DNA from: Candidatus Thorarchaeota archaeon
GTDB taxonomy: Archaea > Asgardarchaeota > Thorarchaeia > Thorarchaeales > Thorarchaeaceae
Direction: 5' to 3'
Assembly (NCBI GenBank): GCA_048884965.1
Contig: JBHLQH010000002.1
Coordinates: 134,935-198,934, forward strand
DNA length: 64,000 nt
Under the pieces are notes generated by a model. It did no database searches. It saw only the letters and a program-made list of their open reading frames with translations, and was not told where the DNA came from. Numbering within the stretch: position 1 is the first letter of the stretch; each line of letters opens with the position of its first letter. Positions 5,480 through 22,005 of this stretch are shown here, piece by piece. Position numbers and translations under genes: made by a program.

Positions 5480-6706
5480 ATGGCAGAAGTCTTCACAAAG
5501 CCTTCCCGGCGTATCACAAATATGGTAGCAAAGGAACTACGACTCATAGTTAAAGATAAGGTAGCTCTGATGTTGATATTCTTGTTACCTGCAGTACTCA
5601 TAGGGATGCTCTACTGGGTCACAAATGAAAGTGATATGGGGGGCATTGACATGGGAGGCGGAGGATTTGGTGGTGGTGGTGGTGGGGGCACCGGAGACAC
5701 AACAAATGTTACAGATATTACTGATGTAGCCACCAACACGACAGAGGAGGAAGACGGTCTAAAAATTGGACTAGTAGACCTAGACACGACACGTACGTAT
5801 GATGGACCAGATCTGTCTGAGAACTTTACGTCTTCGTTAGAGAGTTTCGTTGATGAATTGATCATCTACGAAACTGAGGACGAAGCATATCGCGATCTGT
5901 ATGAGAAGAAGATAGCAGGCTATGTCGTGATTCCAGACGGATTCGAGCAAAACCTCACATTGAACGTGCCAACCTATATCGAAGTGCATGTTGACGCATC
6001 GGACTTCATCGGGGAATCAACAGTCCAAGGAATTGTATCTGGAGCCACGATTCTCTTCAGAGTAAGCAAGCTCTGGATTCGATCGGAGGTGTTCCCCAAT
6101 ATGGTGATAGAGTTCTCTCCAGAGGGCGGCTACTTAGAGAGCGTCTTTGGTAGCTTTATTATTGTGTTCTCAGCATACCTGGGAATTGCCATGACTGCAG
6201 CGCAGTCGATTGTTGGAGATATTCCGTTGCGACGAATGTTATTGACCCCAACAAACAGACTGGAGGTTATTGTCGCAAAGGTGCTAGGATATGTCATCAT
6301 TGGCTTCTTTCAATCATTACTACTGATCACATTGTGGATCATTGTCTTTGGACTGAACCTCAATACAAGCTTCATGACTTTGGTAATCATTATGAGCCTA
6401 ATCGCGCTCACAGGATCGACAACAGGACTCCTCATATCATCAATATCAGGAACTAGACTGCAGGCGAACCAAATCTTCCTTTTTGTGCTATTTGGGTCGA
6501 TCATCCTTGCTGGCTTCTTTATCGATGTTGGGGTCCTTGACGAGATACTGCCGCTGAATCAGGGAATGAAATTACTCGTGGATACGGCATTCAAAGGATT
6601 GTCACTGTTCGATGTGTGGCTCCCAACTGCGAAACTTCTCGGTTTCTCAGTTATCGCGGTACTGGCATCTTCATTCATCTTTGGAAAGAAACCGACTCTG
6701 GGGTAG
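5480..6706 (+). CDS. ABC-2 type transporter permease
   Basis: 'KELRLIVKDK' N-terminus; TM1, extracellular domain ('GYVVIPDGF'), then 5 TMs; 'RRMLLTP...VIVAKVLG' motif. Confidence 0.92.
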   Translation: MAEVFTKPSRRITNMVAKELRLIVKDKVALMLIFLLPAVLIGMLYWVTNESDMGGIDMGGGGFGGGGGGGTGDTTNVTDITDVATNTTEEEDGLKIGLVDLDTTRTYDGPDLSENFTSSLESFVDELIIYETEDEAYRDLYEKKIAGYVVIPDGFEQNLTLNVPTYIEVHVDASDFIGESTVQGIVSGATILFRVSKLWIRSEVFPNMVIEFSPEGGYLESVFGSFIIVFSAYLGIAMTAAQSIVGDIPLRRMLLTPTNRLEVIVAKVLGYVIIGFFQSLLLITLWIIVFGLNLNTSFMTLVIIMSLIALTGSTTGLLISSISGTRLQANQIFLFVLFGSIILAGFFIDVGVLDEILPLNQGMKLLVDTAFKGLSLFDVWLPTAKLLGFSVIAVLASSFIFGKKPTLG

Positions 6707-6715
6707 GTAGTTATC

Positions 6716-8410
6716 ATGACACAACGCATTGAAGAATCAATAGAAAAGGGCGAAGAAACGCCAGCCTTTGTCGAGGAAGCATACTATTCAGGTGCAAGAA
6801 TCGGTGAAGCTATTGACTGGTGCCTATTGCGGAAGGATAGAGAGCTGCACTGCGAAATAGAAGGAAAGCTTACAGATTCAGATGAACAGGTCAAGTTTAG
6901 AGGGCGCATCATCAGCGTCAAGAAGGGAGTTCTACTCAGAAGGCTCTCTGTTGTCGTCGAGGAGGACCTGCGAAAGCGGAGGAAAGCAGACCTCGATAAA
7001 GTACTTACAGTTGGAGGAAGAGGGTCCACAACCGAAGATGTAGCTGCCACGCAGATCACGGTGCAAAACTACCTCAAACGGAATATGTCAGACGATATGT
7101 TCTTCGATGGAAAGGAGTTACAGCAAGCCCATAAAGATATCATGAAAATGAGAGAGAACAGGCTGATTAAGTGCACAGTCTGGGGAAGGCGTGCATCGGA
7201 TCGGCTGCCTATCGTGATTTCGGGAATCATCATATCAACCAACATTAGTCCACTTGAGCCATTCTTGCCAGAAGGATACCTCGAGGTGAGGGTAGAACCT
7301 GAGGAAGGTGTTGGAGATCCGAGAATATTCACAATAGCTCAACCTCAACTCCTAGTGGGACCAATTCGCTTTCGATCAGATCCGAATCTGATGATTTTTG
7401 CAAATAAGGTATATGTCCAACCATCTTCTTGGATGGAAGCACCAGTCTATAGAGATGTATTAGAATGCAGAAATCTCACAGTGACTCTCAAGAATGGAAA
7501 GAAACTGATAGAGAACGTTTCATTCTCAATCAAAGAGGGAGAAATGCTTGCGGTCATAGGTGAGTCAGGTGCTGGCAAGTCCACGACTGTCAAAGCGCTC
7601 ATCGGTGACATCCCAAGCACTGGGGTTGCACGGATAGCTGGCATCGATTCTAGGAACGCTCAGAAAGTACGCTACTTCTTTGGATACTGCCCGCAAGACC
7701 TGAACTATATGTATGAAACTTTTACTCCATTAGAGAATATCATCGCTTTCGGCAAACAGTATGATATCCCAGAATGGCAACTCACCCAAGAAGGAAAGAC
7801 CCTCCTCCGTGACTTCAACATGCTCGAGAAGGGTAATAATCTAACCAAGGAGCTGAGTGGGGGTCAGCAGCGAAGGGTTTCTATCGCGATGGCACTGGTG
7901 CATAGACCCAAGGTCCTGCTCATGGATGAGCCCACTTCAGGACTGGATCCTGATAACAGAAACGAACTTTGGCAGTTCCTGAACCACATCAACCAAGAAT
8001 ATGGAACCTCCATGGTGGTCATCACTCATTACCCAATAGAAGCTGAGTTTTGTGACAAGGTTGCAGTATTTATGCGCGGGAAGAGCTTGGTAGCTTTCGG
8101 GTCTCCTGCAAAGCTCAAGGAATCAATGCCATCTCGAGGTTTCTCAGTTGGTATCGTCCTAGAGGAAGTAGACCCTCGAGCCCGAAAAGCTCTGGAGTCA
8201 GTCCCTGGTGTAATGTTCGTACTTCAACGAGGTGAGCTCTTGAAGGTCTTCACTGAGGAACCGCTACAAACCATCGCAGAACGGTGCGTCACGGAATTGA
8301 ATGAGCGAGAGATAGCAGTCAAGATTGTGAAGACAAAAGCAGTCGCAGATCTGGTGGACTACTACATCGCTATTACTAGAGGACTCATCACTGGTATCAT
8401 TGAGAAATAA
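6716..8410 (+). CDS. ABC transporter ATP-binding protein with ~240-aa N-terminal extension (TrmB C-terminal-like repeats)
   Basis: Walker A GESGAGKST, signature LSGGQ, Walker B LLMDEP, H-loop ITH; NBD begins ~7457. Confidence 0.93.
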   Translation: MTQRIEESIEKGEETPAFVEEAYYSGARIGEAIDWCLLRKDRELHCEIEGKLTDSDEQVKFRGRIISVKKGVLLRRLSVVVEEDLRKRRKADLDKVLTVGGRGSTTEDVAATQITVQNYLKRNMSDDMFFDGKELQQAHKDIMKMRENRLIKCTVWGRRASDRLPIVISGIIISTNISPLEPFLPEGYLEVRVEPEEGVGDPRIFTIAQPQLLVGPIRFRSDPNLMIFANKVYVQPSSWMEAPVYRDVLECRNLTVTLKNGKKLIENVSFSIKEGEMLAVIGESGAGKSTTVKALIGDIPSTGVARIAGIDSRNAQKVRYFFGYCPQDLNYMYETFTPLENIIAFGKQYDIPEWQLTQEGKTLLRDFNMLEKGNNLTKELSGGQQRRVSIAMALVHRPKVLLMDEPTSGLDPDNRNELWQFLNHINQEYGTSMVVITHYPIEAEFCDKVAVFMRGKSLVAFGSPAKLKESMPSRGFSVGIVLEEVDPRARKALESVPGVMFVLQRGELLKVFTEEPLQTIAERCVTELNEREIAVKIVKTKAVADLVDYYIAITRGLITGIIEK

Positions 8411-20641: not shown

Positions 20642-20751
20642 TCGGTTCATACCGGCATGCCACCGTCATTTCCCCTAAAGGAAAGTTTTATTGGGATATC
20701 TAGTAAAACTATTCGCAGGTTCGCATAGAGGGGGAAAGGAACGCGCCTCAA

Positions 20752-22005
20752 ATGGAAACGGAAGAACTCCTCCACTCAATAACTACTCAGCTAAAGTACG
20801 TGGGAGTAGAGGAAATCATTGAGCCCGAGATGGTCAGACCAGTAGCCATCAAGAGCCAGGAACGAAAGAAGCTGGGAAACCTAGAGGAACAGCTACGTAG
20901 CGCGATGGAATCATTGAAGCGCGATGACCGTGTTCCAGAGTTGCTATACAAGATGGGGAACGTCCATTTCAGGGAAGGCGCCTTCGGGAATGCGATTCTT
21001 CTGTATGAACAGAGTTTGGGGCTTGACTCTGATAGGGTCGATGCATGGATTCAGATGGGCATCGCCTACTATATGGGTGGGGAGTACAGCGACGCCATCA
21101 AATGCTTAGATACAGCCATCGGGATCGAGCCCGAGAACTCGAGAGCTTTGACCTATAAGGGGCTTGCTGAGCTAGAGTTGAATCTTTTGGAGCAAGGAAA
21201 GGCGAACTTCGACTTTGCGATAAAGAGCGATCATACGTGTTGCCGTGCCTTTCTTGGCGTTGGTCTCTATTACAAGAAGAAGGGAAATCTTCAAGGAGCA
21301 CTACAATGGATGAGTCGAGCCAGGTCTGTTGGCACACCATCAGTGACCCTGTACCAAGAGATGGCTAAGATATTCGTGGAACAGCATGAGTTCGAGAAGG
21401 CCATTGCCACCTTGGAAGATGCACTAACACTCGACCATGAACATCCCTATGTTCATGCTCTGCTAGGAGATATCCATGTGCTGAAGAAGAGCTTCGATAA
21501 GGCTGCACACTATTATGAGAAGGCGGTCAGTGTCAAGTTCGATGACCCAAAGCTATGGATAAAGAAGGGCGATATCCACAGGAACATGCGATCATATCAA
21601 CAGGCTGCGAACTCCTATGAGAAGGCTATCCATGCAGATCCTGAGAGAGTGGAGGCATGGGTCAAGAATGGTCAGATCTCGCTTCTATTGGATGAACAGG
21701 ACCTTGCCCTTGAATATTTCAATACAGCACTTGCCCTTGAACCCGATAATCCTGAAGTCGCGCACCAACGGGGATTGGTCTACTATTCTACAGGACGCCT
21801 TGAGGAGGCTCTTGATGATTTTGATAGTGCCTTCGCACATGAGCCAGATAATCCTCACCATCTGTACTTTCGAGCGATGATTCTTGAGAAGCTCGAACGA
21901 GCGACAGAGGCGAAACGAACATGGCAGGTCGCTGCAGATCTTTTCCGTGACTTGCATGATGATACGAAAGCAGCAGAATGTTCAGCCAGAGCAAAAAGGC
22001 TATGA
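20752..22005 (+). CDS. Tetratricopeptide repeat protein
   Basis: ~10 tandem 34-aa TPR motifs (e.g. AWIQMGIAYYMGGEYSDAIKCLDTAIGIEP). Confidence 0.92.
   Translation: METEELLHSITTQLKYVGVEEIIEPEMVRPVAIKSQERKKLGNLEEQLRSAMESLKRDDRVPELLYKMGNVHFREGAFGNAILLYEQSLGLDSDRVDAWIQMGIAYYMGGEYSDAIKCLDTAIGIEPENSRALTYKGLAELELNLLEQGKANFDFAIKSDHTCCRAFLGVGLYYKKKGNLQGALQWMSRARSVGTPSVTLYQEMAKIFVEQHEFEKAIATLEDALTLDHEHPYVHALLGDIHVLKKSFDKAAHYYEKAVSVKFDDPKLWIKKGDIHRNMRSYQQAANSYEKAIHADPERVEAWVKNGQISLLLDEQDLALEYFNTALALEPDNPEVAHQRGLVYYSTGRLEEALDDFDSAFAHEPDNPHHLYFRAMILEKLERATEAKRTWQVAADLFRDLHDDTKAAECSARAKRL

Follow-up and report, generated by a model that had tools for sequence, protein, structure and literature searches.

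A set of four genes, encoding an ATP-binding cassette (ABC) permease of the ABC-2 type, two distinct ATPases and a membrane protein in which a dead subtilase domain is joined to a GIFT domain, recurs across Asgard archaea and in the Thorarchaeales is followed by genes for a giant surface protein and a tetratricopeptide repeat (TPR) protein. The locus lies within a metagenome-assembled genome (MAG) of a Candidatus Thorarchaeota archaeon from sediment (4.09 Mb, 99 contigs), where six genes (P0001-P0006) occupy positions 5480-22005 of the 64,000-nucleotide stretch of DNA that was analysed (the window). With moderate confidence, it is interpreted here as a conserved Asgard envelope machine in its Thorarchaeales form, comprising an ABC core with a dedicated dead S8-GIFT partner, to which the giant and TPR genes were added later. 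To our knowledge, Asgard cell surfaces are almost uncharacterised, and a description of this Asgard system was not found in the full-text literature searched. The six genes are as follows.

5480..6706, plus strand: P0001, ABC-2 permease, 408 amino acids (aa)
6716..8410, plus strand: P0002, long ATPase (ATPase1), 564 aa
8435..12907, plus strand: P0003, pseudoprotease-GIFT type-I membrane protein, 1490 aa
12894/12909..13889, plus strand: P0004, short ATPase (ATPase2), 331/326 aa
13886..20641, plus strand: P0005, giant type-I surface protein, 2251 aa
20752..22005, plus strand: P0006, cytosolic TPR protein, 417 aa

A check of open reading frames (ORFs) and junctions recovered all six frames, their common direction and their tight spacing exactly where a first-pass annotation, made from the sequence letters, had placed them, and its domain calls for all six genes were borne out by Pfam and NCBIfam. 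P0001 and P0002 are separated by 9 nt, P0002 and P0003 by 24 nt, and P0004 and P0005 share a 4-nt ATGA overlap; in the window as well as in the related loci L006-L008, the giant gene starts on the stop of the ATPase2 gene (L006-L018 and L056-L058 denote loci of relatives or of the same genome, and f1-f23 denote Asgard families). At the P0003/P0004 junction, a start at TTG 12909 leaves 1 nt between the genes and a start at TTG 12894, which opens the longest ORF, creates a 14-nt overlap. The former is in frame, lies 8 nt after a GGAGG and yields 326 aa, the same as the L007 orthologue, and is likely the start of P0004. The 110-nt gap before P0006 holds a T-run/TATA-like stretch, and this gene probably has its own promoter.

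Conservation of a four-gene core

The invariant unit consists of four genes (permease, short ATPase, long ATPase and S8-GIFT protein) and not of the five that the first-pass annotation had grouped together; its expectation that the genes co-occur across genomes holds strongly for this core and fails for the giant and TPR genes outside the order of the window. The core was found linked in at least eight Asgard lineages. The GIFT-bearing part was found in 127 of 400 Asgard genomes, including 75 of 85 in f1, the single genome of f2, 16 of 19 in f14, and all genomes of f15 (5), f16 (6) and f17 (3); it is also present in members of f19, f20 and f23 and nearly absent from the largest family, f22 (2 of 135 genomes, with weak matches). 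The N-terminal extension of the long ATPase was found in 139 of the 400 genomes with the same family pattern as the S8-GIFT protein. Both proteins are present in f1, f2, f14-f17, f19 and f23, and both are absent from most other families. Moreover, the S8-GIFT and long-ATPase genes of f15 and f17 lie on different contigs and still co-occur, indicating that co-occurrence outlasts the loss of linkage.

The arrangement of the core varies among lineages. Thorarchaeota loci L006-L008 carry all five genes in the same order at 49-57% identity, and the sister family f2 (L016) keeps all six; permease orthologues occupy the same position in L006-L009 and L016. The f14 locus (L009) encodes permease, long ATPase, S8-GIFT protein and short ATPase, without the giant. 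The three ABC genes are divergent from the S8-GIFT gene in f16 and f23, and the four core genes are adjacent in scrambled order in f19. The order in Hodarchaeales and Lokiarchaeia is short ATPase, permease A, permease B, long ATPase, S8-GIFT protein and a small protein with two transmembrane (TM) segments, the two permeases being ancient paralogues of one another (in the permease tree, the f15 row was disregarded because its ORF had been picked wrongly and sat on a very long branch). Database names of orthologues (Thorarchaeota or Promethearchaeota) agree with the placement of the genome. Several permease orthologues with 67-70% identity to the Thorarchaeota protein are labelled Lokiarchaeota, Hodarchaeota or Hermodarchaeota by NCBI, and these MAG bins are probably mislabelled. 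At the Lokiarchaeia locus (L056:17959-20918), the module lies about 2.6 kb from EAP30, ESCRT-II and Vps4 genes, probably by coincidence. In f14 (L009:2413-7419), a convergent gene next to the module encodes a type-I surface protein of 1668 aa with S8 and PPC domains, a further large surface protein adjoining the core.

The transporter and its inactive subtilase partner

P0001 matched ABC2_membrane_3 at 92.6 bits (cut-off 31.6), and hydropathy predicts a first TM segment at residues 20-50, a large outer loop at 51-218 and TM segments 2-6 at 219-402. The outer loop is enriched in N-glycosylation sequons (4 observed versus 0.9 expected, z 3.6), as is the P0003 ectodomain (25 versus 10.9, z 4.9), and this enrichment is limited to the predicted outer parts. 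Both ATPases matched ABC_tran with intact Walker A and B motifs, Q-loop, signature and H-loop; together with the permease family this identifies an ABC-2 exporter (type V, DrrAB/ABCA-like). The nearest solved nucleotide-binding domains (NBDs) to P0004 (ABC_tran, E 3e-27) are those of ABCA3/4/7/1 (E 1e-45 to 4e-49), and its orthologues in other families show 42-62% identity. The best NCBIfam match of both ATPases was drrA (TIGR01188), at 177.4 bits for P0002 and 175.0 bits for P0004, below its cut-off of 312.45 bits. ATPase2 is 42-52% identical across families versus at most 36% to any paralogue within the genome, which argues against a generic drug exporter; the possibility held open by the first-pass annotation, that the ABC genes group with ordinary stand-alone exporters, thus does not apply to the ATPases, and the module ATPases form a dedicated orthologous group apart from generic exporters. 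The domains of P0002 and P0003 are listed here.

6716..7450, plus strand: P0002 N-terminal extension, residues 1-245, tandem TrmB effector-domain-like beta-barrels
7451..8410, plus strand: P0002 NBD and C-terminal domain, residues 246-564 (ABC_tran, E 9e-28)
8900..9775, plus strand: P0003 inactive S8 domain, residues 156-447 (Peptidase_S8 PF00082, E 1.3e-36)
9872..10759, plus strand: P0003 beta-supersandwich, residues ~480-775, of GH15 glucoamylase N-domain or GH94/GH116 type
11471..12253, plus strand: P0003 GIFT domain, residues ~1013-1273, IFT52-like fold
12257..12904, plus strand: P0003 Ig-like sandwich (1275-1375), TM helix (1387-1413) and helical cytosolic tail (1414-1490), from model and hydropathy

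The extension that distinguishes the long ATPase matched Regulator_TrmB (PF11495) at residues 37-117 (E 1.2e-12, 48 bits versus a cut-off of 22.2), and the TrmB-like extension was matched independently in 7 of 11 lineage representatives. It was seen by the Pfam model only, with no match to PDB sequences from either a single sequence or a profile, and is a candidate cytosolic ligand (sugar) sensor.

P0003 is predicted from hydropathy to be a type-I membrane protein, with a signal/TM segment at residues 6-28, a TM helix at 1387-1413 and a cytosolic tail of about 77 residues. More than 120 orthologues of about 1450 aa were found, and about 45 clusters at 50% identity have the full architecture. 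The S8 domain is nearest to the archaeal Tk-SP (3afg, E 7e-42 in comparison with PDB sequences), and alignment to Tk-SP shows that the fold is present and the catalytic set is broken: Asp165 is kept, His206 is replaced by Pro, Ser403 by Ala and the oxyanion Asn300 by Asp. Among 109 full-length Thorarchaeota orthologues, the Ser column holds Thr (58), Ala (46) or Ser (5), such that the nucleophile is lost in 104; the oxyanion Asn is Asp in every one, the catalytic Asp is kept in 108, and the catalytic His is kept in 101 with its loss confined to the subclade of the window. This pattern indicates that the nucleophile and oxyanion hole were lost long ago and that the His decayed recently. The site is dead across the ABC-linked family, including Hodarchaeales and Lokiarchaeia: the Ser position is Ala, Gly or Thr in nearly all proteins of the family and the His is often Arg or Ser. 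The subtilase is thus a pseudoprotease, as first proposed, and the database label of P0003-type proteins as a working "S8 family serine peptidase" is wrong. Separate, stand-alone S8-GIFT proteins of about 1250-1340 aa (e.g., in Ranarchaeia) retain the catalytic Asp, His, Asn and Ser; these (P0213; P0201-P0233) are more S1P-like relatives of the dead family. One of them, P0213 (L057:3085-7095), has an intact triad, a faint MBTPS1_4th match and no ABC neighbours; S1P ranks about 32nd among its PDB matches (E 1.6e-13).

The remainder of the ectodomain was examined in a model of residues 480-1490 built on a 38-sequence alignment across several families (mean predicted local distance difference test, pLDDT, 78). 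The GIFT domain called in the first-pass annotation is real: it superimposes on the IFT52 N-domain with Z 22 and a root-mean-square deviation (rmsd) of 2.2 Å over 195 residues at 18% identity (Foldseek TM score 0.69). A profile of the modelled region matched IFT52 (E 6e-11) and S1P (E 0.0023) among PDB sequences. Residues 1093-1265 matched IFT52_GIFT, DUF4350 and ABC_transp_aux at a weak, GIFT-clan level, and the isolated segment matched IFT52_GIFT at 31.1 bits (cut-off 27.2); P0003 thus combines the alpha/beta fold of the GIFT family with a match to a family profile. The supersandwich resembles the N-terminal domains of GH15 glucoamylases and glucodextranase and of GH94/GH116 enzymes (Z 18-22 overall); in the comparison (VIA), Z was 22.2 to 1ug9, 21.3 to 1lf6 and 18-19 to GH94 over about 235 residues, with an rmsd of about 3 Å.

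Four known systems bear comparison with this assembly, and P0003 combines features of three of them (S1P, OST48 and subtilase pseudoproteases), with the system as a whole judged from its sequences to be GldAFG-like and outside the GldAFG family. The likeness to GldA/GldF/GldG of Flavobacterium noted in the first-pass annotation extends to composition: there, in generic bacterial ABC-2/ABC_transp_aux modules and here, genes for an ATPase and an ABC-2 permease stand together with one for a membrane protein whose GIFT domain is extracytoplasmic. Family membership was not borne out: the GldA model (TIGR03522, cut-off 402.6 bits) scored 129.5 bits for P0004 and 101.5 bits for P0002, no NCBIfam match to GldF or GldG was obtained at E <= 0.01, and ABC_transp_aux scored 21.5 bits (cut-off 34.7). 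GldG is a membrane partner of GldA and GldF that is held to have an accessory role, and the transport substrate is unknown (PMC9127263); in both systems the GIFT protein is presumed to be a non-transporting accessory. In contrast to GldAFG, the present system is archaeal and has no link to gliding or the type IX secretion system, its permease belongs to the ABC2_membrane_3 type and has a large outer loop, it has two distinct ATPases of which one carries a TrmB-like extension, and its accessory protein is about three times larger, with a dead subtilase and a beta-supersandwich.

Site-1 protease (MBTPS1/S1P; PDB 8UW8, 9CSD) consists of S8, P-like and GIFT subdomains, of which GIFT is unique to S1P among proprotein convertases (PMC11231238). 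P0003 follows the same order of S8, beta domain, GIFT, single TM helix and short cytosolic tail, and its residues 908-1273 align with S1P residues 482-874 (Z 19.6 over 305 residues). Unlike S1P, it has lost its catalytic Ser and oxyanion Asn (and also the His in the genome of the window), and has an extra beta-supersandwich of about 300 residues and coupling to an ABC transporter. A specific kinship of the S8 domain with that of S1P was rejected, S1P not being among the 60 best PDB sequence matches listed for P0003. The architecture of P0003 is therefore S1P-like in layout, which may or may not reflect common descent of the whole, and its S8 domain is neither specifically S1P-like nor catalytically competent. 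OST48 is a scaffold in oligosaccharyltransferase, and OST48/Wbp1 (PDB 6S7O/6S7T chain G) is likewise a non-catalytic type-I protein, in which a GIFT-like domain is followed by a beta-sandwich and, at the C-terminus, by a TM helix. The GIFT domain and sandwich of P0003 (residues ~1012-1375) align with OST48 residues 43-412 over about 288 residues (Z 17-18; Foldseek E 6e-10) at an rmsd of about 13 Å, reflecting a different domain orientation; a match at the level of sequence profiles was not obtained. The partner of OST48 is the STT3 enzyme, whereas that of P0003 is an ABC transporter.

The CspC and CspA proteins of Clostridioides difficile are S8 proteins without catalytic residues that are conserved and non-enzymatic (PMC6636752, PMC7200643). 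P0003, which gave weak NCBIfam CspC/CspBA matches, similarly contains a dead yet conserved S8 domain; the Csp proteins, unlike P0003, are soluble spore proteins without a GIFT domain, TM helix or ABC partner and are related to it by the S8 fold only. C. difficile subtilase pseudoproteases act as ligand sensors (PMC6636752, PMC12880746), and the Asgard system could likewise be a receptor or signalling device, in which the pseudoprotease ectodomain binds an external peptide or glycan and controls the ATPases or is controlled by them, net transport being slight or absent. This would suit an S8 fold and Asp that selection has kept despite the loss of the nucleophile, the sensor-like domain on the long ATPase, and the conserved cytosolic tails of P0003 and the giant. 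Nevertheless, such a function is unlikely, given that no output domain (kinase, helix-turn-helix or the like) is encoded in or near the core, that every catalytic motif is kept in both NBDs, and that the permease is of the standard six-TM ABC-2 type.

The giant surface protein

The first-pass annotation described P0005 as a giant TM protein with FG-GAP and TSP3-like repeats, and the propeller, the TSP3 repeats and the TM helix were all seen. It matched BBS2_Mid (48 bits), Beta-prop_BBS7 (40.6 bits) and TSP3_bac (94.6 bits), its repeat region contains 73 DxDxD motifs and 25% Asp, and hydropathy predicts a type-I topology with a signal at residues 1-28 and a cytosolic tail of about 120 residues. 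Its parts are as follows.

14003-15085, plus strand: propeller, residues ~40-400, BBS2/BBS7/FG-GAP type
15143-20170, plus strand: about 73 TSP3-like Ca-binding units, residues ~420-2095 (TSP3_bac)
20204-20275, plus strand: TM helix, residues 2107-2130 (hydropathy)
20276-20638, plus strand: cytosolic seven-strand Ig-like tail, residues 2131-2251 (model, pLDDT 78)

The giant shares TSP3-type Ca-binding repeats with Myxococcus CglD and other bacterial TSP3-repeat adhesins, and an FG-GAP/BBS-type propeller head, long stalk, TM helix and short tail with integrin-alpha-type propeller receptors. The CglD model (cut-off 400 bits) gave 343.8 bits over 13 stretches confined to the repeats; unlike CglD, the giant comes from an archaeon, has a type-I topology, lacks a VWA domain and carries a conserved Ig-like domain in the cytosol.

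Within the order of the window, the TM helix and tail were found in 24 of 24 high-quality genomes and 17 of 17 genera, and the gene is single-copy in the genome of the window. Full-length frames span 2236-2301 aa in f1 and measure 2197 aa in f2; an apparently short giant in L007 (784-818 aa) was rejected as a truncation, since the gene runs into a stretch of N that marks an assembly gap. No DNA tandem repeats were found in the giant gene, the repeats having diverged; they are old, the protein is fixed in length, and the repeats do not form an expanding array. The cytosolic tail is the best-conserved part of the protein (61-74% identity within f1, or 51% in the divergent L006, versus 38-43% for the propeller). 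P0006 matched TPR families. The giant gene is also followed by an orthologue of P0006 at L008 (46% identical), at L016 (27%) and, with an MFS gene inserted in between, at L006. P0006 is an order-specific companion of the giant.

The giant and TPR genes are confined to the order of the window: at least six other Asgard lineages have the core and lack both, and neither the tail nor the propeller was found in representatives of f14, f15, f16 and f19 or at the Lokiarchaeia locus. In Hodarchaeales, a different type-I surface protein of 1359 aa with a beta-helix follows the module, and this hints that variable large surface proteins may be recurrent companions of the module. These observations bear on the proposal of the first-pass annotation that handling, release or positioning of the giant adhesin is what the ABC complex is for, as part of a candidate cell-contact machine, with the dead subtilase-GIFT protein as an adaptor. 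The overlap of the giant start with the ATPase2 stop, the universal presence of the giant in the order at near-constant length, a tail whose conservation points to a specific cytosolic partner, and the Hodarchaeales surface protein all speak for it. The standing of the four-gene core without the giant in so many other lineages makes it doubtful, and these data allow the giant no role beyond that of a derived client of a machine that predates it.

Structural comparison of the tail ended in a tie among the gamma-COP appendage (Z 10.9), transglutaminase barrels (Z 11), ApaG and TRAP (Z 10.2). The top Foldseek match was to COPI (E 8e-5) and Atlas feature scores to appendage families were 0.82-0.86; no Pfam match was obtained with the single sequence or with any of 19 orthologues. 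Kinship with adaptin/COPI appendages, suggested by these model-based comparisons, is treated as a lead. The same sandwich shape is also present on cytosolic Asgard HEAT-repeat and PCI/UFM1-ligase-like proteins. Further, in f15 and f16 (L010:6458-9583, L018:3928-7125, L011:9731-13015) a cytosolic helical-repeat (TPR/MIT-like) protein of about 1040-1090 aa with a C-terminal beta-sandwich is encoded a few kb from the S8-GIFT gene. Of these, P0418 (L010) and P0417 (L011) are homologous over their full length (E 1e-107); with P0417 as query, no homologue was found in the genome of the window. The idea that the sandwich of P0417 and the giant tail are a shared module was dropped (hhalign probability 0.2).

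Proposed function, a second locus and neighbouring genes

In the envelope machine proposed here, the two ATPases would power the permease and so drive outward movement of an envelope component, for which a glycan or lipid-linked substrate would best fit the sugar-related domains; alternatively, the permease may transmit conformational work. By analogy with GldG and OST48, P0003 is viewed as the extracytoplasmic accessory subunit of the transporter, its dead-protease/GIFT ectodomain serving in binding and scaffolding, and a cytosolic ligand may gate activity by way of the TrmB-like barrels of the long ATPase. In Thorarchaeales, the giant and TPR protein were added to the operon; they would be co-produced with the platform and docked on it or serviced by it, such that the giant would be a lineage-specific client or dock. 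The suggestion that the cargo or ligand is glycan-related derives from the TrmB-like barrels, the glucoamylase-N-like supersandwich and a neighbouring gene, P0416 (1071..3443, minus strand), which encodes a 790-aa soluble protein with a six-hairpin-glycosidase look. P0416 had Atlas feature matches of 0.96-0.98 to Bac_rhamnosid6H/MGH1-like/GDE_C clusters (rhamnosidase/MGH1/GDE type) and no Pfam or PDB sequence match; its resemblance to six-hairpin glycosidases is a lead only. Its orthologues (29-36% identity) are found at the same position in L006-L008.

Several points weigh against this interpretation. The glycan theme draws on the likeness of folds, a single Pfam domain and the Atlas lead for a neighbouring gene, none of which demonstrates sugar binding. 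The permease and ATPases fall below every curated NCBIfam subfamily cut-off, which rules out the transfer of a known transport function. The presence of two ATPase genes per single permease gene is unusual and, in most lineages, unexplained. The GIFT gene is tied to the ABC genes by co-occurrence alone in f15 and f17. Finally, the machine has been read from genes. The sequencing runs found to cover window 5401-15400 were four DNA runs of a single sediment-metagenome study, with no RNA run among them; a predicted-complex run on the permease and the GIFT-TM-tail part of P0003 scored 0.00, and, having been made without controls, is not evidence either way.

A more elaborate scheme can be drawn from the same parts, in which a sugar-gated, heteromeric ABCA-like transporter loads or drives an S1P/OST48-like GIFT platform, a forerunner of the GIFT proteins of the eukaryotic endoplasmic reticulum and Golgi, and in which that Asgard-specific surface machine anchors, in Thorarchaeales, an integrin-like giant whose appendage-type tail couples surface contact to cytosolic TPR/HEAT-type partners. 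The scheme as a whole is speculative and quite unlikely to hold in full.

A second locus in the genome of the window bears on a further alternative. On contig 11 (L058:6465-10899), a permease paralogue (P0421, 43% identical to P0001) is encoded about 1.25 kb from a 672-aa S8 protein (P0420), with a gene for an Rce1-like CAAX protease between them and no ATPase gene nearby. P0420 has an N-terminal anchor only, intact catalytic Asp, His, Asn and Ser, and a GIFT core (hhalign probability 92%, E 5e-7); a second short S8-GIFT paralogue with intact catalytic residues is encoded on contig 1. Proteins of the P0420 and P0421 types were found in 24 of 24 good genomes of the order, with adjacency kept in at least 10. 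This second permease paralogue beside a short S8-GIFT protein, present in every good genome of the order and with intact catalytic residues in the copy of this genome, is newly reported here. Dead P0003 could accordingly be one half of a pseudoenzyme-enzyme pair that recruits or regulates its intact short paralogue, with both permeases sharing the ATPases of the operon and with controlled processing of surface proteins, e.g., the giant, as the outcome. The orphan pairing of P0420 with P0421, its retention across the order and the tandem permease genes of Hodarchaeales and Lokiarchaeia would agree with such a pair. Nevertheless, this is improbable, as representatives of f14, f15, f16 and f19 encode the in-module permease only, showing that pairing is not general, and as the intact triad is known from the two paralogues of this genome only. 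Lastly, an ordinary small-molecule or drug exporter that neighbours surface-protein genes by chance, for which the drrA (daunorubicin resistance) match of both ATPases (175-177 bits) could be cited, is very improbable in view of scores under the 312-bit cut-off, linkage or co-occurrence over at least eight Asgard lineages, ATPases that form a dedicated orthologous group, and tight or overlapping junctions.

The envelope machine favoured here would be a large, strongly conserved and multi-lineage Asgard membrane machine without an assigned function. No closer relatives of eukaryotes are known than Asgard archaea, and the domain plan of P0003 is common to two eukaryotic endomembrane proteins, S1P and OST48, so that Asgard roots of these proteins become a testable question. 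In Thorarchaeales, the locus pinpoints what may be the main giant surface adhesin, and the conserved cytosolic tail of the giant could be used as bait, making the locus a concrete experimental target.

The genes that flank the locus include a lineage-specific insertion, a 589-aa gene with one weak HEAT_2 match at 3574-5343 (plus strand), which lies between divergent P0416 and the permease gene and is absent from the equivalent place in L006-L008. Downstream, a gene for a pyridoxal phosphate (PLP)-dependent enzyme (21978-23099) overlaps the end of P0006 by 28 nt. Co-oriented genes at 23102-26072 (minus strand), encoding a GNAT protein, an ATP-grasp enzyme of D-Ala-D-Ala-ligase type and a 460-aa protein without a Pfam match, converge on the gene for the PLP-dependent enzyme.

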